From NCBI GenBank assembly GCA_035280845.1, contig DATEFB010000007.1, positions 5,778-69,777 on the forward strand: a DNA stretch of 64,000 nt, in the 5' to 3' direction. The notes under the pieces were generated by a model, which did not search any database, was not told the DNA's origin, and saw only the letters and a program-made list of their open reading frames with translations. The translations under genes and the position numbers were made by a program. Numbering within the stretch: position 1 is the stretch's first letter; the number at the start of each line of letters is the position of its first letter. The DNA comes from Candidatus Saccharimonadales bacterium. GTDB taxonomy: Bacteria > Patescibacteriota > Saccharimonadia > Saccharimonadales > EFPC-124. Of this stretch, positions 19,027 to 62,403 are shown in pieces.

Positions 19027-20058
19027 GTGGCATCGAGCAAACAAAAAAAGAAGCAGCCAGCCAGCCAAAAGCAACAGAATGCAGTTATTGCCCGCTGGAA
19101 AGCGGTTATTGCTGACGGCAAGGCGAGGGCCAATCTATACCTTTCCCGACGGCCGCATAGGGCTTTCCGCATAACCCCCACCCGCAGCTACAAACGGGGT
19201 GAGCGGGTAGAGGGCGCATGGAGTCTTGTTAAAGGATCGTTCGGAACGATTTGGCACGAAAAACGCACTATTTGGGTGCTCATGCTACTGTTCGCGCTCA
19301 CCAGCTATATTGTCGTAGGCGGAATCTCCCAGCTGAGTTTTGTAGATTTGCGGCAGGCCACACAAGAGCTATTTCAGGGGAACCTGGGTGCCCTTGGGTC
19401 GGTCGCGACGTTATTCGGAGCAGCCGTTACGGGGAGCCTCAGCCCTACGGTTTCGCAGGTACAGCAGTTTTTATCGGGCGCCTTGGCGTTTTTGTTCTGG
19501 CTCAGTTTAATCTGGATATTGCGACGGCGGCTGGCCGATCAGGATACGTCGGTAAAAGAGGCGTTATATAATTCGGGTGCGCCGGTTATTCCGTCTATTT
19601 TGGTTGCGACAGCGCTCATGATCCAGCTTATCCCCGCGGTCATTGGTATTCTTGGTGCAGTTCTAACATTAAGCGGCGCCTGGTTTCAGGGTGGGGTAGA
19701 GAGCATGCTGGTTTGTACGGCTGCGGCGCTGTTGGTGCTGCTTTCGATCTACTGGATTGCTGGCTCTGCCACAGCCATGATTATTGTGACAATCCCAGGC
19801 ATGTACCCGTGGCGGGCACTTTCGGCCGCGAGCGATTTGGTTATTGGCCAGCGTTGGCTCATTGCACTGCGGGTTGTTATTATGGCGCTCGTTGTGTTTG
19901 CCGTATGGGCACTTGTTTTAGTGCCTATATTGCTGCTCGATGGTTGGCTCAAATTTAACTGGCTCCCATTGATTCCCATTGCCGTGCAGTTTTTGGGCGC
20001 GTTTACGCTTACCTACGCTGCAACATTCGTCTATAAAATGTACAGAAGTATGATATGA
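19027..20058 (+). CDS. Polytopic membrane protein, unknown function
   Basis: GTG start, Lys-rich N-terminus, about 6 hydrophobic helices. The stop overlaps the ligA start. Confidence 0.5.
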   Translation: MASSKQKKKQPASQKQQNAVIARWKAVIADGKARANLYLSRRPHRAFRITPTRSYKRGERVEGAWSLVKGSFGTIWHEKRTIWVLMLLFALTSYIVVGGISQLSFVDLRQATQELFQGNLGALGSVATLFGAAVTGSLSPTVSQVQQFLSGALAFLFWLSLIWILRRRLADQDTSVKEALYNSGAPVIPSILVATALMIQLIPAVIGILGAVLTLSGAWFQGGVESMLVCTAAALLVLLSIYWIAGSATAMIIVTIPGMYPWRALSAASDLVIGQRWLIALRVVIMALVVFAVWALVLVPILLLDGWLKFNWLPLIPIAVQFLGAFTLTYAATFVYKMYRSMI

Positions 20059-22073
20059 ACAAATCAGATGCAAAAGCCCGTATAGCAAAATTACGCGACC
20101 TCATTAACGAGTACCGTTACGAATATCACGTTAACAACCATTCCATCATGGAAGAATCGGCGGCTGATGGGTTAAAGCATGAACTTGCCGAACTCGAAGA
20201 GCAATACCCTGAACTAATTACGCCCGACTCGCCAACCCAGCGCGTAGCAGGCGAGCCGTTGCCGCAATTCGTATCGGTTGAACATAAGTCGCGCATGCTT
20301 AGCCTGAACGATGTGTTTAGCGCACAGGAAGTCCAGGCGTGGGAAGACCGTGTTATAAAGAACAGTCCCGCTGGCACTAAGCTGGATTTTTTTGCTGACA
20401 TTAAAATGGATGGCCTGGCATGTTCGCTGGTGTACGAAGACGGCGTATTGGTGCGTGGCGTAACGCGCGGCAATGGCACCGTTGGCGAAGATGTGACGCA
20501 CAACGTCAGGACTATAGATTCAATTCCGCTGCGCCTGCGCAAAGCCCCCGAGACAGAGATGTTTTTACAGGGTCGCACAGAGGTTCGCGGCGAGATTGTA
20601 ATGTACAAAAAAGACTTCGAAGCGCTTAACAAGGCACGGGAAGAGCAAGGTTTGCCGCTGTTCGCAAACCCCCGTAACTTGGCTGCAGGCACAGTGCGGC
20701 AGCTCGATCCAAAGTTGGTTATTCACCGGCCATTGCATTTTAGGTCATGGGATATTATTCGTGACGATGCATCCGAGATTCCTACCAACCGCGCTGCTTA
20801 CGATGCCATTGGCGCGCTTGGTTTTTTGGTAAACCGTGAAGCGAAAGTACTGCCCGATGTGGCGGCCGTTATGGCATTTTCCAAGGAATGGGAAGACAAG
20901 CGTCATGACCTGCCGTTCAATACCGACGGCCTGGTCGTAAAGGTCAACGACCGACGGTTATTTGCATTCCTGGGCGTGGTCGGGAAGGCCCCGCGCGCTG
21001 CCGTGGCGTTTAAGTATCCTGCCGAACAGGCAACCACAAAGATTAAAGACATATTTGTGAGTATTGGTCGCACCGGTGCTGCAACCCCTGTTGCCGTGCT
21101 TGAGCCCGTGGTTGTTGCCGGTTCGACTGTGCAAATGGCAACGCTCCACAACGAAGGCGAAGTACGCCGCAAAGACGTGCGTGTGGGTGACACGGTGATT
21201 GTGCAGAAGGCTGGCGATATTATTCCTGAAGTCGTTGAGTCGCTTAAAAAGCTGCGCACTGGTTCTGAGCCTGAATTTAAAATGCCGACTGCGTGTCCGG
21301 AATGTAGCACTACGCTCGAAAAGCGCGACAACGACGCTGTGTGGCGCTGCCCCAACAATAACTGCCCGGCTCGCGTGCACAACCTGATCCAGCATTACGC
21401 CAGCAAAGCCGCGCTCGATATTGATGGCTTGGGCGAGAAAAATGTTTTGGCATTGCTCGATGCAAAACTCATACGCGATTCAGCCGATCTTTATACGCTT
21501 ACAAAAGACCAGCTTCTGCGCCTTGACCGCTTTGCAGAGATTTCGGCGAGCAAATTAATCGATGCTATTGCTGCAAAAAAACGCCCAGGTTTAAGCCATT
21601 TCATCTACGGCTTAGGCATTCGTCAGGTCGGTGCGCAAACGGCTGTCGATTTAGCAAACCGCTTCGAAACGTTGGATGCGCTTCGGGTTGCAACCATCGA
21701 TGACCTTCGGCAAGTTGAAGGCGTCGGCGAGGTTGTGGCCGAGAGTATTGTGGCTTGGTTTGGCAGTGATGACCATCAACAGCTGCTGGCAAAATTCGCC
21801 AACGCAGGCGTCGAGCCGCAAAAGGTTGTGTATACCGGCGGCCCGCTGACGGGTAAAAACTTTGTCATCAGCGGCACGCTCGACATGGACCGCGAAGAAG
21901 CCGCCGAAAAAATACGCGCGCTTGGCGGTACATTCCAAAGCAGTGTCGGCAAGACCACGACATATCTTGTGCTGGGCGAAAATCCGGGCCAGAGCAAAGT
22001 AGACAAAGCCGAGAAACTTGGCACTAAAATCGTAGACGAAGCCGGTTTTAAAAAGATTCTGGAGAGTTCGTGA
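20055..22073 (+). CDS. ligA: NAD+-dependent DNA ligase
   Basis: 672 aa. Adenylation lysine 'DIKMDGLA', Cys4 finger 'CPECSTTLEKRDNDAVWRCPNNNCPA', HhH repeats, C-terminal BRCT ('GKNFVISGTL'). Confidence 0.95.
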   Translation: MNKSDAKARIAKLRDLINEYRYEYHVNNHSIMEESAADGLKHELAELEEQYPELITPDSPTQRVAGEPLPQFVSVEHKSRMLSLNDVFSAQEVQAWEDRVIKNSPAGTKLDFFADIKMDGLACSLVYEDGVLVRGVTRGNGTVGEDVTHNVRTIDSIPLRLRKAPETEMFLQGRTEVRGEIVMYKKDFEALNKAREEQGLPLFANPRNLAAGTVRQLDPKLVIHRPLHFRSWDIIRDDASEIPTNRAAYDAIGALGFLVNREAKVLPDVAAVMAFSKEWEDKRHDLPFNTDGLVVKVNDRRLFAFLGVVGKAPRAAVAFKYPAEQATTKIKDIFVSIGRTGAATPVAVLEPVVVAGSTVQMATLHNEGEVRRKDVRVGDTVIVQKAGDIIPEVVESLKKLRTGSEPEFKMPTACPECSTTLEKRDNDAVWRCPNNNCPARVHNLIQHYASKAALDIDGLGEKNVLALLDAKLIRDSADLYTLTKDQLLRLDRFAEISASKLIDAIAAKKRPGLSHFIYGLGIRQVGAQTAVDLANRFETLDALRVATIDDLRQVEGVGEVVAESIVAWFGSDDHQQLLAKFANAGVEPQKVVYTGGPLTGKNFVISGTLDMDREEAAEKIRALGGTFQSSVGKTTTYLVLGENPGQSKVDKAEKLGTKIVDEAGFKKILESS

Positions 22074-25842: not shown

Positions 25843-25925
25843 CGCCTGCGGCCTGCCTCGCGGTTCGATAGGCTTGTCAAAACAGAGGTAAACTGCTAAA
25901 ATAATTCTCGATATACAACTGCTAT

Positions 25926-26002
25926 GGGCCCATAGCTCAGTTGGTTAGAGCATCTGCCTCTTAAGCAGAGTGTCCTGGGTTCAAGTCCCAGTGGGCCCTC
26001 CA
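25926..26002 (+). tRNA. tRNA-Lys (CUU), CCA encoded
   Basis: Acceptor gggccca/tgggccc, anticodon loop ct-CTT-aa, T-loop ggttcaagtcc. Confidence 0.9.
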
Positions 26003-26105
26003 GATATTATCATTCCCACAACATCTCTTACGAGACCAAATGACGGCTTAGCCTGACAGCTAGAGCCGTCATTTTGGTTGTCGGCCGCAAATACTGCTTC
26101 CACTT

Positions 26106-26414
26106 TTACAGGGCTTCTTTTCTGCTATCCATGTCAACATGCTGGTACGCCCAGCTTCTTAAGGAGTGCCGCAGCCGTATGGCGCAGGTGATGTACCTTG
26201 ATTGCCCGTAACCCGTGCTCACGGCAAAGCCGTTGGGCAAGCCCAGCTTGAAGGCGATGAGTTCGGTACGCATGTAAAGGCTCCCGGGGTTAGTGGTTCT
26301 TGGAACTAACCCGCGCGTAGCGATCCCGACCTCCTGTTGTGATAGCAAAACCACGGCGCGTGAAGCCGTGGTTTTTACAGCACTAATAGCGATGATACAA
26401 AGCAGCCCCCGCAT
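26106..26414 (-). pseudogene. Possible degenerate tyrosine-recombinase (integrase) remnant next to tRNA-Lys
   Basis: 102-aa ORF. 'LYMRTELIAFKLG' resembles the box-I 'TGMRxSELxxLKW' segment. 'IRLRHSLRSWAYQ' resembles box-II 'HDLRHTxASWxxQ'. The two are only ~35 aa apart and the C-terminal Tyr region is missing. Confidence 0.25.
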
Positions 26415-26451
26415 GACACGGGAGCTGCAACATTTTCGCTCTAAGAAGCGG

Positions 26452-27078
26452 CTACTGAGAGGCCCGCAGCGTCAGCAATGACGACTGTAACGCCGAACGT
26501 TGCGCGTTTTCAAATGCAGTGTCGGATATGCATCCGCCGGATCCGCTTTGTACTGTGCCGGGCAGTGGAACAGCGAAGATTTTGCTACCAACGGTGATGT
26601 ATCCATTCTCTGGCTTGATCTCGGCCGCTGTAATGTTGCTGTTCCGGTTCTTCTCGACAGCCAACAGGTCGGCTTGTGAGCTGTAGACGCTGACAGTAAC
26701 GATCGGATGGTCTGCATCACCCCAAGGTGTGGATGGGTCGAACCCACAGACGTTCTGGTCCCCCCCTGTTGCCCCTTTGTCGACTAACTGCTGGGTGGAA
26801 AGTCGAATGAGCTTGTGGTTCACACCGCCAAAGCTGTAATCAGTCATCTTATATAGCGGGGTGATGCCGCTCTTTTTGTCGAATTCGACGCCTAGTTCGG
26901 GCATCTTCGAGACGTTCTGGTTGACGGTCTGGCTGCCGTTATTCGTCGGCGGTGGAGTTTCACCCTTGTTCTGAGCCTGCCACACATACCAACCGCCCAC
27001 AGCAAGTAGCGCAATTACCGCTAGCACTATTACGACTTCGACGACACCGAAGCCTCTCTGATCTCGTGTTGTTGGCAT
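26452..27078 (-). CDS. Type IV pilin-like protein (class III signal peptide)
   Basis: N-terminus 'MPTTRDQRG|FGVVEVVIVLAVIALLAVGGWYVW' has the prepilin cleavage motif G|F with Glu at +5, then a hydrophobic helix and a ~170-aa globular domain. Confidence 0.7.
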   Translation of the reverse strand: MPTTRDQRGFGVVEVVIVLAVIALLAVGGWYVWQAQNKGETPPPTNNGSQTVNQNVSKMPELGVEFDKKSGITPLYKMTDYSFGGVNHKLIRLSTQQLVDKGATGGDQNVCGFDPSTPWGDADHPIVTVSVYSSQADLLAVEKNRNSNITAAEIKPENGYITVGSKIFAVPLPGTVQSGSGGCISDTAFENAQRSALQSSLLTLRASQ

Positions 27079-27282
27079 GACAATTTGCTCGTTTAATTTT
27101 TCCCATTATCTACCTTTAGTGAACCCGTTGCAATAGCGCCATTCGATCTATTGGCTATGCAAGATGCTTTTCATTCAAACGAACCTGTGTTAATTGTTAT
27201 TCAACCCCATGATCATTGTAAGCATCGTGAGGGCGTACCCAATCCGTTTCTCGATTCCCTCACAGAAGGGGGCCGAAAGCCC

Positions 27283-28770
27283 GTGCGTACAATTATGCGC
27301 AGGGTGGCAGTTGCTGCGACAGTGTTGTTAGCCCTTGTGGCTACCAACGCAGTCGTGGCGCCGCCCGCCTTTGCCGTAGCGATGAAGACGAACCGTGTCA
27401 TCCTGAACGGCGCAGATTGGTTGGGGGGCGACGGCGTCAACGTCTACTCCAATGATGGAAACTTCGACTCGAACATGGCCGACACTAACTATGTTAACGG
27501 AGTCCAAAGCGGCTACCGCTGGCAGTGCGTTGAGCTGGTGAACCGGCTCTACCTCACGCGCGGCTGGACAAGTACGTGGTGGTCGGGCAACGGCTATCAG
27601 ATGCTTGACAGCGCACCAGCCCACCTCGCCAAGTCAGCGAATGGCGCGATCCAGGCAATCAATCCAGGTGATGTCATCGTACTGGGTGGCGGCTGGTTAA
27701 ATTTCGGCCATGTCGCCATCGTTAGTGGCGTGACCGGGACGACAATCCATACCGTCAGCCAAAATCTCTCGACTGCGAACGATGGAGTCGGGGGTGACTT
27801 CACCTGGAACCAGTCCGCCAAGACGATCACGCCATGGTCGGGCTACTCGATGACGGGTGTCGTTCATGCTCCAAACGGCGGCGCGTCGGCTGGTAACGGT
27901 GGCACCCCACCCGGCCTCGGCTCCAAGATTGCCTCCGCCCGCCACGCAGATGGCCGCCTGGCCGTCTTCTACATCGGGGCTAACAGCGCGATTTACTACC
28001 GCAACCAGAACTCACCCGGTAGCATAGGTTGGACGTCGGAGATTCACATTCCGGCGTATGCGAAGGCAATCGCGGCAGTCACCAACGCACAAGGTCGGAT
28101 CGAGCTGTTCTACATCGGTGCCAACAATGGCCTGTATCACCGCTGGCAACCCTGGACGAATACCGACCAGTGGTCGCCCGAGGAATACTTCTCGGCCAAC
28201 ATCCGGGCAATCGCCGCAGCCAACAACGGCAACGGCATCCTGGCGGTGATCGCGGTTGGGTCGGACAACCAGTTGTACATCATGCAGCAGCCCGCGCCGA
28301 ACTCGTGGAACGGGCAATGGCACAACATCCCGGCGCAGTCCGTGGATATTGCCATGGCAACGGCGCACGACGGCCGCAACGAGCTGTTCCATGTCGGCAC
28401 CAACTACCAGACGTACCACCGCTGGGAGTGGTCACCGGGCTGCTGCTGGTCGTCGCCGGAGGAGGTCTGGGGTACGAATGTCCGCAAACTGGCCGCAACC
28501 CGCAACGCCGACGGCCGCATGGAGGTCTTCGCCATTGGCAGCAATGCCCAGATCTACAACAACTGGCAGCAACAAGCCGGTTCCAACTGGGCGAATACCT
28601 GGCCGTTGATTCCGGCTCAGGCGCGGTATATCGCGGCGGCGACCAACGTGGATGGCAGGCTGGAGATCTTCTACGTCGGAGCTAACAACTCTGTGTACCA
28701 CCGGCGGCAAACGCAAGCCGGGTGCTGCTGGGGGCCAGAGGACATCCTGCCCGCGAACGTTGCACCGTAG
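27283..28770 (+). CDS. Secreted CHAP/NlpC-P60-type amidase fused to a six-blade tectonin/tachylectin-like beta-propeller lectin
   Basis: Signal peptide 'RRVAVAATVLLALVATNAVVAPPAFA'. Catalytic Cys 'YRWQCVELVNRLY' and His 'FGHVAIVSG'. Six repeats of '(A/H)DGR.E.F.(I/V)G.N...Y.(R/N)WQ'. About 60% G+C by hand count of 28261-28320. GTG start 27283; ATG alternative at 27295. Confidence 0.75.
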   Translation: MRTIMRRVAVAATVLLALVATNAVVAPPAFAVAMKTNRVILNGADWLGGDGVNVYSNDGNFDSNMADTNYVNGVQSGYRWQCVELVNRLYLTRGWTSTWWSGNGYQMLDSAPAHLAKSANGAIQAINPGDVIVLGGGWLNFGHVAIVSGVTGTTIHTVSQNLSTANDGVGGDFTWNQSAKTITPWSGYSMTGVVHAPNGGASAGNGGTPPGLGSKIASARHADGRLAVFYIGANSAIYYRNQNSPGSIGWTSEIHIPAYAKAIAAVTNAQGRIELFYIGANNGLYHRWQPWTNTDQWSPEEYFSANIRAIAAANNGNGILAVIAVGSDNQLYIMQQPAPNSWNGQWHNIPAQSVDIAMATAHDGRNELFHVGTNYQTYHRWEWSPGCCWSSPEEVWGTNVRKLAATRNADGRMEVFAIGSNAQIYNNWQQQAGSNWANTWPLIPAQARYIAAATNVDGRLEIFYVGANNSVYHRRQTQAGCCWGPEDILPANVAP

Positions 28771-28901
28771 CGCCTGCGTTCAGGGCGAGAAGAACAAAGT
28801 GAGAAAAGAGCCGGTGAGTGGAGAGCTTCACCGGCGAAGACCTGAGCCATGTCTTGAAACTGGCTCACTTAAATTACTGTTGATTGCCGCGGATGCTAAA
28901 T

Positions 28902-29059
28902 GAAAATGGCGGGCTACGTGAACGTAGCGCCGCCGGAAAGGGGCACTTATAGGGTTGCGGGCGTAGCCCTCGACCGGAGAGCTGGCCGAGGGCTACGCGT
29001 ACATGGGGACTCGCGTATTCGCGGCGTCCTGTACTGCAATCAACTATTGAGCCATTTTC
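28902..29059. other. 158-nt nested inverted-repeat element (three hairpins closed by a 9-bp helix); candidate structured RNA or island end
   Basis: Closing helix gaaaatggc (28902-10) / gccattttc (29051-59). H1 gctacg-tgaa-cgtagc (28913-28). H2 gcgtagccctcg...cgagggctacgc (28961-98, 12 bp perfect, extendable). H3 gtaca..ggac.cgcg-tatt-cgcg..gtcc-tgtac (28999-29034). Confidence 0.3.
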
Positions 29060-29154
29060 TATAAAAGCAGAAATCTGGCTGTAATGTTAGTGTTAAGCAA
29101 GCATCTCCATGCAAAAGAGACGCCACGCCCGCGTTCTTTTGTTAAAATGGCGGT

Positions 29155-31197: not shown

Positions 31198-31267
31198 GAT
31201 TGACATGCTGGCAAAATTTGCCGTATGATTTGACGGTGCTCATTGTCTAGTGAGAAGGAGAGCACTC

Positions 31268-31603
31268 ATGACCCACGGTTTCAGTGGTTTCGGTGGCGGT
31301 GCCCCGCAGGGCGGTTACGACCAGCCGCTCCGCTGCCCGCGTGACAACGAACTCATGGCCAAGGTCAACGACCGGAACGCCAACGTTGTCATCGACCAGT
31401 GCCCGCGCTGCAAGGGCGTCTGGACGGACGCCGGCGAGATGGAGGCCATCGTGGCTTCCGTCACCAACGCGCCGGGCTTCCGTCCGCAGCCGAACTACGC
31501 GGCCTCCCACGGGAGCCACTCGGGTCACGGTGGTCACGGCGGCCACAACCGCCGTCACCACCGCACCAGCGACGGCATCTTCGGGAGCTTCTTCGGCTCC
31601 TGA
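31268..31603 (+). CDS. zf-TFIIB-type zinc-ribbon protein with His/Gly-rich tail (high-GC cassette C)
   Basis: SD GAAGGAG 7 nt upstream. 'LRCPRDNELMAKV...VVIDQCPRCKGVWTDAGEMEAI' matches the 'CPxC...CxxCxGxWxDxGE' zinc-ribbon family, with the first knuckle lacking its second Cys. Tail 'SHGSHSGHGGHGGHNRRHH'. Confidence 0.6.
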   Translation: MTHGFSGFGGGAPQGGYDQPLRCPRDNELMAKVNDRNANVVIDQCPRCKGVWTDAGEMEAIVASVTNAPGFRPQPNYAASHGSHSGHGGHGGHNRRHHRTSDGIFGSFFGS

Positions 31604-31779
31604 TCATCCGCGCACCGAGCGCCAACATACTGTGCGCTCAGCCCGGCCCCAGGAAGATCCTTTCCTCGGGGCCGGGCACCCCTACCATCGACCAGAAACA
31701 TACCATCATGGTAAGATAGAAGTAGTGCGAAGACACAGCCACAGAGGTGGGCTGAGCCAACATCCCGCTACAAATAATT

Positions 31780-41355: not shown

Positions 41356-42540
41356 TCATCCCTTTTTGCCGAATGTGCCCAGCCGGTACAGACGGACTAC
41401 CGCCATGCCAGCGGCTAGTGTGCAGAGTCCCCCGGTTGCCAGGAGGCCAAGGCGCAGGCCGCCAGTATCTACTGCCATGCCAGCGAGTGGACCAACGATC
41501 GTAAACGACAGCCGTTGCAGCAGGTTGACTCCGCTGTTGAGCGTCGCACGATGAGTGCTATGCATATGGCCATTCAACCAGCTCATAATGGCAGGGCCCT
41601 GCAGTGCGTGCACGATTTCGTGCCCAAGCACCAGCAGCAACAGCCACCAGTTACCGCTGGCCATCCCGGCAAATCCGAATGCGCCCAATGCGACGTACAG
41701 AGTCATGTAGCGCCCCATGTTCTGTTTGGGGTGGAACCAGTGCGACCAGGCTGCTTTCCAAAGGTTGCGGGCAGCCAGAATCGCGGCAAACAGCGCCACC
41801 GGGATCCCCATGTTCACATAGACTGGCGTTGCCAGCCAGGCGCCCATGTAGGTACAGGTACTGAGTGACACATACAGCACTAGTAGCCAGCGGACCTCTC
41901 GGCTGCCAAGTAGCATGCGCAGAGCTTTTGGTGCAGGCACGACTTCCTCGTGGGCAGACGTGACGAGTGGGGCCTCCTTAAGGCGCAGGACAAAGATCAG
42001 CCCGATTCCGGTCAATAGCCCGTCGGCAATGAACGTTGCGCCAAGACCGACATTATGCGCCAGCCACATCGCCAGTGGCAGGCAGATAACCGGTGCGGCA
42101 AACCCATAGGCGTTCATACGCTTGGTCGCGCGCTCGGCGGCCTGTTGGTGCTCGGCAGGAGTCTGACCCGGCTTGTGCAGCGAGTCGTACAGCAGTGCGG
42201 AGTCGGCGCCGCTGATCAAGCCATTGGCCAGCGCGAGCCCCAGCTCCCATACAACGAACTGCCAGAACTGGTCGCTCAGGCCATATCCGATCATGGAAAC
42301 CACTACAACCGGTGCGCTCAGTTTAATGCACAGGGCGCGGCCAATCTTGTCGGCAATATAGCCGCTCGGCAACTCCCACAGCAGCACAGCCAGCGAGAAG
42401 ATTGATTGCAGCGCAAAAATCTCGGTCTGGTTGAGGCCGTTGTGCATGAAGAACGGTGCCAGGAAGGCGGTCGACACCGAAAGTGTTTTAAACGGCGCAA
42501 ACCGTAGCAACCACTTGGGGTTGTCGCGGTAGGTGTGCAT
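41356..42540 (-). CDS. MFS transporter
   Basis: 394 aa from ATG 42540 (AAGGAG upstream), ~12 helices, 'LPSGYIADKIGR' loop 2-3 motif. Confidence 0.75.
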   Translation of the reverse strand: MHTYRDNPKWLLRFAPFKTLSVSTAFLAPFFMHNGLNQTEIFALQSIFSLAVLLWELPSGYIADKIGRALCIKLSAPVVVVSMIGYGLSDQFWQFVVWELGLALANGLISGADSALLYDSLHKPGQTPAEHQQAAERATKRMNAYGFAAPVICLPLAMWLAHNVGLGATFIADGLLTGIGLIFVLRLKEAPLVTSAHEEVVPAPKALRMLLGSREVRWLLVLYVSLSTCTYMGAWLATPVYVNMGIPVALFAAILAARNLWKAAWSHWFHPKQNMGRYMTLYVALGAFGFAGMASGNWWLLLLVLGHEIVHALQGPAIMSWLNGHMHSTHRATLNSGVNLLQRLSFTIVGPLAGMAVDTGGLRLGLLATGGLCTLAAGMAVVRLYRLGTFGKKG

Positions 42541-42666
42541 TGCGCGCTCCTTCTTAAAGTTGATGACGTGTGGGTCTGGTTTCCCAGAACCCGATCCGCC
42601 TCCGAAAATATAAAAACGTCTCCGCATTTCGGAGACGTATCATGACCTATGAAATAAAGTGTAAGT

Positions 42667-49134: not shown

Positions 49135-51996
49135 ATGAAACGATACAATCCCGCCGATATTGAACCAAAATGGCAAAAGGTCTGGGAAGACCAGCAAACA
49201 TACAAAGCCGACAACACCAGTAAAAAGAAACCATATTACGCGCTGAGCATGTTTCCATACCCAAGTGGTATTGGACTGCACATTGGCCACGCACGCATTT
49301 ATAGCACCACTGATGTGTTGGCACGTTTTATGCGCATGCAGGGGTACGAAGTGATGCAGCCATTTGGCTGGGACAGCTTTGGTTTGCCCGCCGAGAATTA
49401 TGCAATTAAAACCGGTACGCCGCCACAAGTTGTGACTAAGCAAAATACCGACAACTTTCGTACGCAGGCCAAGCATTTAGGCCTGTCGATTGACTGGTCG
49501 CGCGAATTTGCCAGCACCGACCCCGACTATTACCGCTGGACCCAGTGGTTTTTCCTGCTGCTGCACAGGCGTGGCTTAGCCTACCAAAAAGAGAGCGCCC
49601 AGTTTTGGTGCAATGAATGTAAAACCGTACTGGCAAACGAACAGGTTGTAAACGGGTGCTGCTGGCGCCACGAAGACAAGCCGGTAACCAAGAAGACCCT
49701 GAAGCAATGGTTCTTTAAAATTACCGATTATGCCGATCGTCTGGAAGCTGACTTGGACCAAGTTGACTGGCCGGAAGGCATTAAAAGTATGCAGCGCAAT
49801 TGGATTGGCCGCAGCAAGGGCGCCGAGGTGGACTTTGCAGTTGATGGCAGGGACGAGACCATTAAAATCTTCACCACACGAGCTGACACGTTATTTGGTG
49901 CCGCCTTTATGGTGCTGGCTCCCGAGCACGAGCTTGCCCGAACCATTACAACTCCCGAAAAGCTGCGTGACGTTGACATGTATATAAAGCAGGCCGAGAC
50001 CAAAACCGACATCGACCGCATGGACGAAGGCCAAGATAAATCCGGTGTCTTTACGGGCGCCTACGCAATCAACCCGGTGAATGGCGAGAAGATTCCAGTC
50101 TGGATCGCCGATTTTGTTTTGGGTGGATACGGCACTGGCGCTATTTTTGCAGATGCCCACGACAGCCGCGACGTTGCGTTTGCTCGCCAACACAACATTG
50201 CGCTCAAAGACACTATTGAACCCGAAACCGGCACGCCTCAACAAAACCCCGAATTCCGCCGCAGCATCGTTGCCATTGTGCGTAACCATAAGACCGGTGA
50301 AGTCTTAACGATTAACTGGGGCAAAATGGGCGGCAGCCTGTTTGTAGGTGGTGGCCGTGATGACGAAGAAGACATAATCGCCTGTGCCGAGCGCGAGATC
50401 CGCGAAGAAACCGGCTACACCAACATCCGCTTCGTAGCAAAAACAGGCACGATCCACCACAACTACTTTGCGGCAAGCAAGAACGTCGCCCGACGCATCG
50501 AGGCGCATGGTTTATTGTTCGATTTAGTCGACGAATCGCGCCAGGAAGCAAAGCTCGAAGCTGACGAACAGGGCAAATTCACTGTTGAATGGCTGCCTCA
50601 GAACGAAGTCGAATCCAAAGTGCGCGATGAGCTGCACGCTTTGGTCTTTACCCGCCTGGTCAAGAACGAGGCCTACACCGGCGAAGGCATTTTGGTTGAT
50701 TCGGGTAAGTACAGCGGCATGCGCAGCAGCGAAGCCCGCGAGCACATTGTTGCCGACCTAGAGGCGCAAGGCGTGGGCAAAGAGCGAGTCAACTACAAGA
50801 TCCGCGATTGGCTGATCAGCCGTCAGCGCTATTGGGGTGCGCCAATTCCAATCATCCACTGCCCGAAAGACGGCATTGTGCCTGTGCCCGAAGACCAGCT
50901 GCCCGTGCAATTACCCGAATTAAAAGAATTCCAACCTTCGGGTGATGGCCGGTCGCCACTGGCAAATGTCCGCGACTGGGTAGAGGTTGCATGCCCAACG
51001 TGTGGCGGTCCAGCCGAGCGCGAAACTGACACTATGGATGGTTTTGCCTGCAGCAGCTGGTACTTCCTGCGATTTGCTGACCCTAAAAACAATAGCGAAC
51101 CATTCAGCCGCGAACTGGCCGAAAAATGGCTGCCCGTGAACACCTACGTTGGTGGTGCTGAGCACGCGGTTATGCATTTGCTGTACGCTCGCATGTGGAC
51201 AAAAGTCATGTTCGACGAAGGCATGATAAGCTTCCAGGAACCGTTTACTGCATTGCGCAGCCAGGGAATGTTGCTGGCTCCAGACGGCGGCAAGTTTAGT
51301 AAGAGTAAAGGCAACGGCGTAGATCCCGAAGACGTTATTAATAGCGGATACGGGGCGGATGCGCTGCGCACGGTACTGATGTTCCTGGCGCCATTCGACC
51401 AAAAAACGCCGTGGAGCCCAGAAGCACTGGGTGGCGTGTACCGTTTCTTAAACCGCATCTGGACCATTGCTCAAGAGGTTGACGAAAAAGCGAAGGGCTC
51501 CGATCAAAGCGACGACCTGCGTCGTTCGGTGCACAAAGCCATTAAAAAAGTTACCGAAGACATGCAACAGATGGGCTTTAACACCGCCATTGCCGCCGTC
51601 ATGGAGTTGGTCAACGAGCTGTACAAGCATGCCAAGACTCAGGACATGGCGCAGTATGGCGATGACTGGCGCTGGGCAATAAAAACAACCGCGCAGCTTA
51701 TTGCGCCCTGTGCCCCGCATTTGGCCGAGGAGTTGTGGCAGCAGTTTGGCGGCGAGGGCTCGGTGGCGGTCAGTGAATGGCCTCACTTCGACAAAGCATT
51801 GCTAGTCGCTTCGACCATTACCATTGTGGTGCAGGTGAATGGTAAGATTCGCGCAAAGTTAGAGATGCCTGCGCAGGCATCGGAGGCTGATGTAAAGTCT
51901 GCGGCTTTGGCAGACGACCATGTTAGGCAGTTTGTGTCCGGCGATCCTAAGAAGGTCATTTACGTACCCGGCAAATTACTGAGTATTGTGGTTTAG
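49135..51996 (+). CDS. leuS: Leucyl-tRNA synthetase with an inserted Nudix domain (about residues 362-512)
   Basis: 953 aa. 'PYPSGIGLHIGH' (HIGH), editing domain 'TTRADTLFGA' and 'AHDSRD', 'RDWLISRQRYWGAPIP', 'KFSKSKGN' (KMSKS). Extra segment with a perfect Nudix box 'GGRDDEEDIIACAEREIREETGY'. Confidence 0.95.
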   Translation: MKRYNPADIEPKWQKVWEDQQTYKADNTSKKKPYYALSMFPYPSGIGLHIGHARIYSTTDVLARFMRMQGYEVMQPFGWDSFGLPAENYAIKTGTPPQVVTKQNTDNFRTQAKHLGLSIDWSREFASTDPDYYRWTQWFFLLLHRRGLAYQKESAQFWCNECKTVLANEQVVNGCCWRHEDKPVTKKTLKQWFFKITDYADRLEADLDQVDWPEGIKSMQRNWIGRSKGAEVDFAVDGRDETIKIFTTRADTLFGAAFMVLAPEHELARTITTPEKLRDVDMYIKQAETKTDIDRMDEGQDKSGVFTGAYAINPVNGEKIPVWIADFVLGGYGTGAIFADAHDSRDVAFARQHNIALKDTIEPETGTPQQNPEFRRSIVAIVRNHKTGEVLTINWGKMGGSLFVGGGRDDEEDIIACAEREIREETGYTNIRFVAKTGTIHHNYFAASKNVARRIEAHGLLFDLVDESRQEAKLEADEQGKFTVEWLPQNEVESKVRDELHALVFTRLVKNEAYTGEGILVDSGKYSGMRSSEAREHIVADLEAQGVGKERVNYKIRDWLISRQRYWGAPIPIIHCPKDGIVPVPEDQLPVQLPELKEFQPSGDGRSPLANVRDWVEVACPTCGGPAERETDTMDGFACSSWYFLRFADPKNNSEPFSRELAEKWLPVNTYVGGAEHAVMHLLYARMWTKVMFDEGMISFQEPFTALRSQGMLLAPDGGKFSKSKGNGVDPEDVINSGYGADALRTVLMFLAPFDQKTPWSPEALGGVYRFLNRIWTIAQEVDEKAKGSDQSDDLRRSVHKAIKKVTEDMQQMGFNTAIAAVMELVNELYKHAKTQDMAQYGDDWRWAIKTTAQLIAPCAPHLAEELWQQFGGEGSVAVSEWPHFDKALLVASTITIVVQVNGKIRAKLEMPAQASEADVKSAALADDHVRQFVSGDPKKVIYVPGKLLSIVV

Positions 51997-55078: not shown

Positions 55079-55120
55079 AAAAGAGCACCTCGCATCAGCG
55101 GGGTGTTTTTATTGTCGGAT

Positions 55121-55165
55121 TGGGGTGTCCCCCGGGTTGCAGCGATAAGCTCTGCTGCAACCCGG
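55121..55165 (-). terminator. 13-bp GC-rich hairpin downstream of the alpha-CTD-like ORF
   Basis: ccccgggttgcag ... ctgcaacccgggg is a perfect inverted repeat, 23 nt past the stop at 55188. Confidence 0.55.
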
Positions 55166-55187
55166 GGAGACCGGTTTGTGGAGCCGG

Positions 55188-56214: not shown

Positions 56215-56310
56215 TAAAACTAAGTTCGAAAGATCGAACAGCAAAAACAAAAAGAAAAGCTCGTGCGAGCAAAGAGGGATTTTATCCCAAATTGAGAGCT
56301 TTATGTGGCG

Positions 56311-56340
56311 AAACAACCCTCCATTGCGGGGGTTGTTTTG
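56311..56340 (+). terminator. Intrinsic terminator after the KH-domain gene
   Basis: aaacaaccctc-cattgc-gggggttgttt followed by T-tract. Confidence 0.8.
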
Positions 56341-56414
56341 TATCTGAAAGAAATAATAACAAGAGTTGGACTGACGCCCGCACCCGACGTCGTTGGCGGG
56401 TGCGGGCGGCAGGT

Positions 56415-62300: not shown

Positions 62301-62305
62301 TCAGT

Positions 62306-62351
62306 GGCAAGTGCCGACCCGCGTTATGGGATCGGCACTTGCCCAGTTTTT
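62306..62351 (+). terminator. Intrinsic terminator
   Basis: ggcaagtgccga ... tcggcacttgcc (12 bp perfect) followed by cagTTTTT. Confidence 0.8.
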
Positions 62352-62403
62352 ATTCTGGGCAAAACCTATTTATTGCGCGGCGCTTGTGCATTAAGCTGGT
62401 CGC

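Follow-up and report, generated by a model that had tools for sequence, protein, structure and literature searches.

A tyrosine-integrase pseudogene beside tRNA-Lys as the probable fossil of an integrated element in an uncultured Saccharimonadales bacterium

Introduction

In tDNA islands of the Islander type, integrated elements are bounded by attachment (att) repeats that derive from the 3′ end of a tRNA gene (PMC4383910). The PLL/PHL lectins of Photorhabdus, which bear on one of the genes considered here, are seven-bladed (PMC6943638). The subject of this report is the DNA directly 3′ of a tRNA-Lys gene in a 64,000-nucleotide (nt) stretch (the window; G+C content, GC, about 53%) from an uncultured Saccharimonadales bacterium (Saccharibacteria/TM7). 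Beside the tRNA lies the disabled 3′ end of a tyrosine-integrase gene. Beyond it stand a type IV pilin-like gene and a divergent gene for a secreted protein in which a CHAP domain is joined to a beta-propeller resembling the PLL lectins (CHAP-PLL). The locus is probably the fossil of a tyrosine-integrase element that was once integrated at the tRNA-Lys 3′ end.

Saccharibacteria have reduced genomes and depend on surface contact with host bacteria. To our knowledge, mobile elements and gene flow are poorly documented in these bacteria and in the candidate phyla radiation (CPR). No tRNA-linked island of the CPR or the Saccharimonadales was described in the literature found, which is weak evidence of absence. 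Three contigs of other assemblies match the window at 99.99-100% identity and so add no variation, and exact-protein look-ups return only 100% identical sequences of the same population, among them a 72-kb ENA contig. Related contigs are referred to below by L numbers and database proteins by P numbers.

Results

An integrase pseudogene beside tRNA-Lys

Set against the Islander-type definition, the locus retains some parts of an island and lacks others. The tRNA edge is present as an intact tRNA-Lys(CTT) at 25926-26002. The content of the site differs between relatives and is in part foreign in composition, as seen in the cargo of contig L169, the third-position G+C content (GC3) of the CHAP-PLL gene and the non-synteny of the segment. 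In place of an intact tyrosine integrase gene beside the tRNA there is only a disabled 3′ fragment, and the window holds no displaced tRNA 3′ fragment as a direct repeat at a far end. The features that carry the argument are:

25926-26002, + strand: tRNA-Lys(CTT), intact, with encoded CCA (ARAGORN; Rfam RF00005, 72.7 bits)
26003-26085, + strand: arm 3′ of tRNA-Lys with a terminator-type hairpin (stem 26038-26075, then TTTTGG), present in both copies on L169
26109-26270, − strand: tyrosine-integrase pseudogene remnant, 3′-terminal part only (tblastn with the L004 integrase, nucleotide alignments, Smith-Waterman, database search)

The reference for the remnant is the integrase of L004, the closest species-level relative. 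This is an intact tyrosine integrase of 417 amino acids (aa; L004:14191-15444, − strand) that abuts tRNA-Ala(GGC) on the opposite strand and carries PF00589 (7.7e-23) and a SAM-like N-terminal domain. In the window, 26229-26140 read in frame −2 encodes LCREHGLRAIKVHHLRHTAAALLKKLGVPA, which is 77% identical over 30 aa to L004 integrase residues 300-329 and corresponds to the box-II HxLRH region (motif HHLRH). The catalytic tyrosine motif lies in another frame: 26109-26150, read in frame −3, encodes AYQHVDMDSRKEAL, with the motif AYQHVDMDSRKE matching IYQHDDMLTRRE in L004. Nucleotide alignment against L004 places a gap of ~62 nt between the two, with its junction near 26150; the LGH segment is lost there, the frame is shifted, and the segment YQHVDMDSRKE comes after the deletion. 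Relative to L169, a further ~79 nt are absent near 26236-26249, and frame −2 contains stop codons at 26134-26136 and 26125-26127. The last ~10-15% of the integrase gene survives and the 5′ ~85% is gone; the remnant contains no box-I region, and its Arg-I and Lys regions are either missing or undetectable. No single frame holds the catalytic R-K-H-R-[H/W]-Y set, with HxLRH in frame −2, the tyrosine in frame −3, LGH deleted and stop codons intervening.

The Smith-Waterman score of the remnant against the L004 integrase is 129, compared with a mean of 32 and a maximum of 66 for shuffled sequences. A repaired 63-aa peptide, searched against 5.8 billion proteins, returns four matches, all of them PF00589 proteins; the best (64% identity, E 5e-8) is P0124, encoded on L169. 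PF00589 is the top Pfam family for the correct-frame translation of 26137-26289, but at 14.8 bits (E 0.025) against a threshold of 27.1. With the L004 integrase as tblastn query, the remnant is the only integrase-like sequence in the 64-kb window, and no intact gene is found. It lies on the strand opposite tRNA-Lys with its 3′ end toward the tRNA, the same relative orientation as that of the L004 integrase at tRNA-Ala. Together, these sequence comparisons show a tyrosine-integrase pseudogene in canonical position beside tRNA-Lys.

A related contig shares the stump and carries different cargo

A second copy of this arrangement is found on L169, a 6.9-kb Logan contig (1-6929, GC 0.55). It aligns with the window as follows:

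25973-26076: 80% nucleotide identity
25997-26147: 79% nucleotide identity
26141-26236: 75% nucleotide identity
26249-26381: 82% nucleotide identity, including a 37-nt block at 97%

Homology therefore spans 25973-26381 at 75-82% identity, continues more weakly to ~26415 and ends inside a terminator; the 22-mer TCGCTACGCGCGGGTTAGTTCC comes from this conserved stump. The integrase fragment of L169 follows L004 residues 261-377 colinearly, is interrupted by one frameshift and retains the LGH...Y region. It ties the window remnant to 117 integrase residues (E 3e-29), from which the window copy has lost the further ~62 and ~79 nt. The 5′ truncation falls at the same point in both copies, and the same spacer adjoins it, so it is older than the divergence of window and L169. 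Beyond the stump L169 encodes two membrane proteins, a 254-aa protein and a 619-aa secreted GDSL-lipase protein (GC3 0.81), all unrelated to the cargo in the window. The stump is thus shown, at the level of sequence alignment, to be common to a relative that has apparent att-like repeats and different cargo.

Those repeats are of tRNA-Lys origin. In window orientation, L169 starts with the last 30 nt of tRNA-Lys and a diverged copy of the hairpin arm. At an internal junction only CCTCCA of the tRNA is kept, followed by an arm that closely resembles that of the window. The contig ends in a partial tRNA-Lys-like sequence that runs from the anticodon loop and lacks the 5′ half. Both ends thus carry tRNA-Lys-like 3′-half sequence in the same orientation, the pattern that a single element or two in tandem would leave if bounded by att repeats from the tRNA 3′ half. 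Because the repeats are two partial copies at the contig ends, this arrangement remains an interpretation. Taken as a whole, L169 resembles an island at tRNA-Lys that is either composite or in tandem.

The arm 3′ of tRNA-Lys and the search for an att repeat

The hairpin that the original prediction described directly 3′ of tRNA-Lys is real: the stem at 26038-26075 folds at −28.7 kcal/mol with a z-score of −6.1 against shuffled sequences. It is similar to the A-tract/hairpin/T-tract terminators 3′ of tRNA-Cys, tRNA-Ile and tRNA-Gln in the same window. In an alignment of three arm copies (the window and two from L169), 89% of cells are paired, and two compensatory changes from G-C to A-U preserve the pairing. 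These changes would fit a functional terminator provided by the element. A promoter-like site lies on the other side of the tRNA:

25874-25902, + strand: TTGTCA-17-TAAAAT with TG, 10 of 12 consensus matches, 24 nt 5′ of tRNA-Lys, called by consensus match alone

The original prediction had also reported no direct repeat of the tRNA 3′ end downstream. A search for att sequences over the whole 64-kb window likewise finds no copy of the tRNA-Lys 3′ end (15-23 nt matches, at most 2-3 mismatches allowed). With no displaced tRNA fragment left in the window, the island cannot be delimited and would not be mobile.

The 102-aa open reading frame is spurious

The original prediction placed degenerate box-I-like and box-II-like integrase motifs in a 102-aa open reading frame (ORF102). 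The features of this part of the stump are:

26106-26414, − strand: ORF102 (102 aa), spurious (no family match, non-coding codon usage)
26271-26415, − strand: spacer common to L169, 82% identity with a 37-nt block at 97% (blastn and alignment)
26286-26312: hairpin within the spacer (hairpin scan)
26347-26375: bidirectional terminator within the spacer (terminator scan)
26402-26428: pilin terminator hairpin, its 3′ arm within the spacer (hairpin and terminator scans)

The open frame is present, but it runs off-frame through the pseudogene, and its integrase motifs do not hold up. Integrase-derived DNA does occur here, with box II and the tyrosine motif, but outside the frame of ORF102 and with no box I. 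The box-II-like motif in the ORF102 translation is an off-frame echo of the real box II. The hidden Markov model search with PF00589 that had been proposed for ORF102 gives no match, and neither do Pfam, PHROG, NCBIfam or PDB sequences, permissive thresholds included; integrase similarity is undetectable in its translation outside the last 13 residues. A full HMMER search of 1.84 billion representatives returns only a self fragment and P0123. The codon score of ORF102 is −0.03; real genes reach 0.12 at their 5th percentile, and spurious (antisense) frames average −0.13. Its ATG at 26414 sits in the pilin terminator hairpin, the frame crosses the bidirectional terminator, and the ENA gene caller does not call it on the 72-kb ENA contig. 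It stays open across the pseudogene because the two frame-shifting deletions compensate. The negative family searches, the codon usage and the start within a terminator hairpin rule out ORF102 as a gene or an integrase.

An extension of the remnant into the N-terminal half of ORF102 (VKTTASR against VKTSAGR) is not significant, and derivation of the spacer 26271-26415 from the integrase could not be shown. The database protein P0123 (529 aa) consists of seven near-identical tandem repeats of ~75 aa, each 31% identical to ORF102 residues 52-93; it probably represents tandemly repeated, integrase-derived DNA of another organism translated off-frame.

The CHAP-PLL gene is foreign in composition

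The cargo beyond the stump comprises two divergent genes and the region between them:

26452-27078, − strand: prepilin-type (type IV pilin-like) gene, 208 aa (PF07963 and TIGR02532 above cutoffs)
27079-27294, no strand assigned: divergent promoter region between pilin and CHAP-PLL genes (consensus scan)
27105-27133, − strand: promoter-like site of the pilin gene (consensus scan)
27295-28770, + strand: secreted CHAP amidase/peptidase with a six-bladed PLL-like beta-propeller, 491 aa (PF05257, PF26607, AlphaFold, Foldseek)

The higher-GC, divergent secreted amidase-lectin gene of the original prediction is borne out by its domain matches, signal peptide and GC3. The open frame extends over 27151-28770; the likely start at 27295 yields the signal peptide MRRVAVAATVLLALVATNAVVAPPAFA. 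Because the upstream extension 27151-27294 looks non-coding (GC3 0.38, codon score 0.04), 27295 is the probable start; it is also that of the 491-aa Logan gene call on L003, and the NCBI annotation (P0001) starts at 27283. The CHAP domain occupies approximately residues 71-157 (PF05257, 2.7e-10, 41 bits against a cutoff of 26), and its catalytic residues, as read from the sequence, are Cys78 (QCVELV) and His139 (GHVAIV). A PHROG endolysin family also matches the protein (1.1e-5).

The propeller spans approximately residues 205-491 and contains six 47-aa repeats with the motif DGRLEVF..G.N...YHRWQ. An AlphaFold model built with 18 homologs has six four-stranded blades (24 strands, residues 212-485, pLDDT above 90), one fewer than the seven of the PLL lectins. 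By Foldseek, its best PDB matches are PLL2/3/4/5 and PHL (E ~1e-22, 26-32% identity). A PF26607 match is precomputed for the identical protein, and two NCBIfam lectin models score below their cutoffs (NF052350, 90 bits against 350; NF052348, 87 bits against 200). Homologs of the propeller across many phyla carry M23, GH25, amidase_2, cutinase, Rv2525c-like or matrixin modules. As these homologs join it to different wall-degrading or protease modules, the propeller would be a portable targeting module.

The CHAP-PLL gene is foreign in composition. Its GC is 0.61 and its GC3 0.77 (0.81 in the PLL half), compared with a genome GC3 of 0.58 ± 0.03 taken from 25 trusted genes, a difference of about five standard deviations. 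A homolog on the low-GC contig L085 (59% identity) is likewise displaced, with a GC3 of 0.65 against 0.36-0.47 in its neighbours. On L084 and L166, both of high GC, the homologs resemble their neighbours in GC. Composition thus suggests import from a high-GC donor or lineage. On L084 (GC 0.62), the full-length homolog (50% identity) lies ~1.2 kb from a fragment at L084:2-748 that resembles an IS66-family transposase when its translation is read by eye.

A pilin-like gene of native composition adjoins the CHAP-PLL gene

The prepilin-type gene stands where it had been predicted and passes both cutoffs (PF07963, 23.8 bits against 21.2; TIGR02532, 19.6 against 16.3). Its N-terminus, MPTTRDQRG|FGVVE with Glu at +5, has the form of a class III signal peptide: RG|FGVVEVVIVLAVIALLAVGGW, with G at −1, F/M at +1, E at +5 and a hydrophobic helix. 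With a codon score of 0.165 and a GC3 of 0.62 its composition is native, so it need not be imported cargo. No prepilin peptidase or assembly machinery is seen among the annotated genes of the 64-kb window. On L085 a divergent prepilin gene also adjoins the CHAP-PLL gene. Because prepilin-motif genes are rare in these loci (one in the window, two in ~190 kb of relatives), the repeated adjacency is suggestive of functional pairing, although it is no proof.

A structured spacer follows the CHAP-PLL gene

The original prediction closed the segment with a 158-nt nested inverted-repeat element, which lies in the spacer 3′ of the CHAP-PLL gene:

28771-29154, + strand: structured spacer of 384 nt between the CHAP-PLL and NUDIX genes (z −6.3/−7.5, folding against shuffles)
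28902-29059: nested-hairpin element of 158 nt (z −6.4 on the + strand, −8.1 on the − strand)

The element is strongly structured, but nothing marks it as the terminus of an island, and five other spacers of the window are comparably structured (z −3.5 to −6.8). The spacer forms about five GC-rich hairpins with no T-tracts and has no coding signal; Rfam searches return only tRNAs and no family for this spacer or for that beside tRNA-Lys, both at gathering thresholds and at E<=1. No homolog of the element is found in L169, L085 or other related loci by blastn or by a single-sequence covariance model over 27 sources. We regard 28771-29154 as an unexplained structured 3′ untranslated region or spacer. 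A tandem duplication within 28760-29085, hinted at by two weak repeats, is unsupported by alignment or TRF. Elsewhere in the window, the spacers 31562-31779, 55079-55187, 56215-56414 and 62301-62403 (z −3.7 to −6.8) contain long GC-rich hairpins with no common sequence.

The wider locus lies in a zone of plasticity

The backbone around the locus is conserved in seven relatives: tRNA-Cys/Leu, LemA, M48, a hypothetical gene, LigA, (Ham1), tRNA-Ala(GGC), Mur ligase, LeuRS, NusB, NUDIX and RNase III. The best relatives of the DNA ligase gene LigA (20055-22073) are Saccharimonadales metagenome-assembled genomes, at 55-70% identity. Between tRNA-Ala(GGC) and Mur ligase the seven relatives have 0-4 kb, as against 22 kb in the window (25.1-47.2 kb). 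At its tRNA end this interval holds tRNA-Ile, an ORFan gene, tRNA-Lys, the stump, the pilin gene and the CHAP-PLL gene. The rest comprises NUDIX, DUF817, Zn-ribbon, GH6, galactose-oxidase-like and cellulose-synthase-like GT2 genes, a long (622-aa) sigma factor, DUF1761, an MFS transporter, Ku and LigD.

Judged by gene order, the 25.1-47.2 kb stretch is lineage-specific relative to the seven relatives. LigA-anchored synteny in GTDB genomes recovers the conserved backbone and nothing of 25-47 kb, DUF817-anchored synteny in metagenomes finds no shared neighbourhood, and the upstream gene hyp225 gives no relatives because it is an ORFan. The limits first proposed (26003-29059) stand in that this segment is non-syntenic in relatives; they fall short in that the variable region is far larger. 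A segment syntenic in all relatives at the same composition, with no integrase match, had been named as what would speak against an island. What is found is a non-syntenic segment, a CHAP gene of foreign composition and similarity to integrases. No att repeats of tRNA-Ala or tRNA-Ile are found for the 22-kb block, and besides CHAP-PLL its only composition outliers are the Zn-ribbon and MFS genes. The former (31250-31603) has a GC3 of 0.84 and the latter (41356-42627) a GC3 of 0.70, against 0.58 ± 0.03 for the genome.

Since the L004 integrase element and, in L019, other unrelated genes occupy the same backbone position, the stretch that follows tRNA-Ala(GGC) is a zone of plasticity in this family. 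The L004 locus (L004:14172-22004) consists of the integrase followed by more than 7 kb of unrelated genes (NUDIX, kinase-like, HAD, GHMP-like) and appears to be a live or recent island; no att repeat was found within it. The NUDIX protein of the window and that of the L004 island have no similarity to each other. On the far side of the interval, the leucyl-tRNA synthetase gene (49135-51996) contains a NUDIX domain (PF00293, E 1e-10, residues 375-494) inserted directly behind the editing domain. In the relatives the match runs unbroken in L007 and L011 and is split in L006, L009 and L012, so the NUDIX insertion may vary.

Discussion

Proposed history of the locus

If the locus is the remains of a tyrosine-integrase element, its history likely involves: ancestral integration at tRNA-Lys; decay of the element; and replacement of what lay beyond it. 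What would survive of the element is a stump of ~410 nt (26003-~26415) made up of the element arm, the 3′ end of the integrase and a conserved spacer with terminators. In this sequence of events the element-derived arm would now supply the terminator hairpin of tRNA-Lys. The integrase would have been disabled by 5′ truncation, by the two deletions (~62 and ~79 nt), by the frameshift and by stop codons. The slot beyond the stump may then be a variable cargo position whose content has been replaced, with the pilin and CHAP-PLL genes here and the GDSL lipase and membrane proteins in L169. Having neither an intact integrase nor an att repeat, the locus would now be immobile. The products of the pilin and CHAP-PLL genes probably work together on the surface of an epibiont. 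Contact would be the task of the pilin-like protein, and the CHAP enzyme, targeted by its lectin part, would cleave peptide or amide bonds of peptidoglycan in the wall of a neighbouring cell.

Several observations weigh against this history. The end of the island is not definable, because the window has no att-type repeat of the tRNA-Lys 3′ end, and the remnant alone stays below the PF00589 gathering threshold. The stump is seen in one relative only, L169, whose two ends are contig ends. The 22-kb block could be a rearrangement and not acquired DNA, and it holds tRNA-Ile and tRNA-Lys, which are likely essential. As to the cargo, nothing ties the pilin and CHAP-PLL genes mechanistically to the integrase element. 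The pilin is native in composition, and it resembles that of L085 over the N-terminal 48 aa only. The donor of CHAP-PLL is deduced from base composition.

Alternative explanations

One alternative would deny the island altogether and treat the segment as ordinary chromosomal DNA, in which the likeness to integrases arose by chance or from conserved non-coding sequence. Such a reading takes in the lack of a family match for ORF102, the subthreshold PF00589 score on the correct frame and the missing att repeat; it fails to account for a stretch of 30 aa that is 77% identical to a genuine integrase and goes with a colinear tyrosine motif, for a database-wide search (E 5e-8) that returns integrase-family proteins only, for the bridge through L169 to 117 integrase residues (E 3e-29), or for a position and orientation beside the tRNA that are canonical, as in L004. 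It is very improbable. Selection on ORF102 or on the spacer 26271-26415, as a functional small gene or small RNA, could instead explain why the stump is conserved in two lineages. The spacer is better conserved than the pseudogene (82%, and 97% in the 37-nt block, against 75-79%), the region is structured (z −3.5 to −4), and a 55-aa piece of ORF102 is called as a gene elsewhere (P0122). Set against this are the non-coding codon usage of ORF102, its start codon within a terminator hairpin, and its loss in L169, where different deletions alter the frames. Rfam has no family for the region, the hairpin of terminator 26347-26375 has no conserved counterpart in L169, and the comparison of the spacer covers two sequences. 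We consider a function of this kind quite unlikely.

The remaining alternatives accept the integrase element and differ on its cargo. The pilin and CHAP-PLL genes, perhaps up to the 158-nt element, might be the original cargo, with the 158-nt element as an eroded attR-side end. The block directly adjoins the stump, the CHAP-PLL composition is foreign, and a weak 18-nt direct repeat (26431-26448 / 29053-29070, 72% identity) flanks it; L003, an independent contig of 100% identity, ends at 26235 and 29011, near the limits so proposed. That repeat is nevertheless at chance level, the 158-nt element is unlike the tRNA-Lys 3′ end and is not found in L169, L085 or other related loci, and equally structured spacers occur elsewhere in the window. 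The pilin has native GC3, and the L085 pair lies in a different context. Since the truncation point is common to L169, whose cargo differs, the present cargo would be later than the truncation or independent of it. Original cargo is thus an unlikely origin for these genes. The L003 contig itself (run SRR5195123, window 26235-29011) stops within the integrase remnant and within the 158-nt element; its ends could be assembly-graph branch points, from strain variation around the pilin and CHAP-PLL genes, or a result of low coverage. A more speculative and likewise improbable possibility is that the conserved ~410-nt stump is a fixed landing pad in this Saccharimonadales lineage. High-GC secreted-enzyme cassettes, possibly from an actinobacterial host (CHAP-PLL with pilin; GDSL lipase), would be swapped there without a resident integrase, through homologous recombination on the stump or an integrase acting in trans. 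If so, the locus would be a host-range or host-attack determinant of these epibionts.

Significance

A fossil element with later cargo therefore remains the preferred account. Decayed tDNA-linked islands are a well-known, textbook kind of locus, and the additional interest here is modest and comes from the CPR host and the type of cargo. The relatives together offer a concrete case of tRNA-site integration in Saccharimonadales, with an intact integrase (tRNA-Ala, L004), a decayed one (tRNA-Lys, window) and a composite island (L169). Compositionally foreign secreted hydrolases are among what accumulates at such sites. If the high-GC donor was an actinobacterial host, genes of the CHAP-PLL type would be testable candidates for host interaction.

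Comparison with known systems

The modular CHAP wall hydrolases (phage endolysins and bacterial autolysins) resemble the CHAP-PLL protein in their Cys/His motifs, signal peptide and predicted C-terminal carbohydrate-binding module, in the PHROG endolysin match, and in that homologs exchange the catalytic module on the same propeller. They differ in that the window protein has a PLL-like propeller instead of an SH3b, LysM or choline-binding module and stands in no holin or phage context. The PLL/PHL lectins are the best structural matches of the protein, which also has the precomputed PF26607 match and the 47-aa repeat motif. Here, in contrast, six blades are predicted, the NCBIfam lectin models stay far below their cutoffs, and the propeller does not stand alone but follows a signal peptide and a CHAP domain in one chain.

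Phage-type tyrosine integrases (PF00589 with the SAM-like PF14659), known from temperate phages of Mycobacterium, Gordonia, Propionibacterium and Thermus, are the counterpart of the L004 homolog, which has both domains and is 31-34% identical to annotated integrases from these phages in alignments that cover more than 90% of its length. The window remnant retains the HxLRH box II and the tyrosine motif of this family; unlike its members, it is out of frame and has none of the Arg-I, Lys and LGH regions. Genes for phage structural proteins are absent from the surroundings, and IMG/VR viral contigs give no match for the stump or for close integrase relatives.

The closest likeness is to the Islander-type tDNA islands (PMC4383910). 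Unlike these, the window keeps of its integrase only a pseudogene stump of ~160 nt and has no displaced tRNA fragment. It shares with them a tRNA at the edge with integrase-derived sequence beside it on the opposite strand, a tRNA 3′ end and terminator restored by element sequence, variable cargo of foreign composition and, on the related contig L169, a partial 3′ half of the tRNA displaced to the far end. By this comparison the locus is an ordinary fossil genomic island, yet of a kind rarely documented in this bacterial group.

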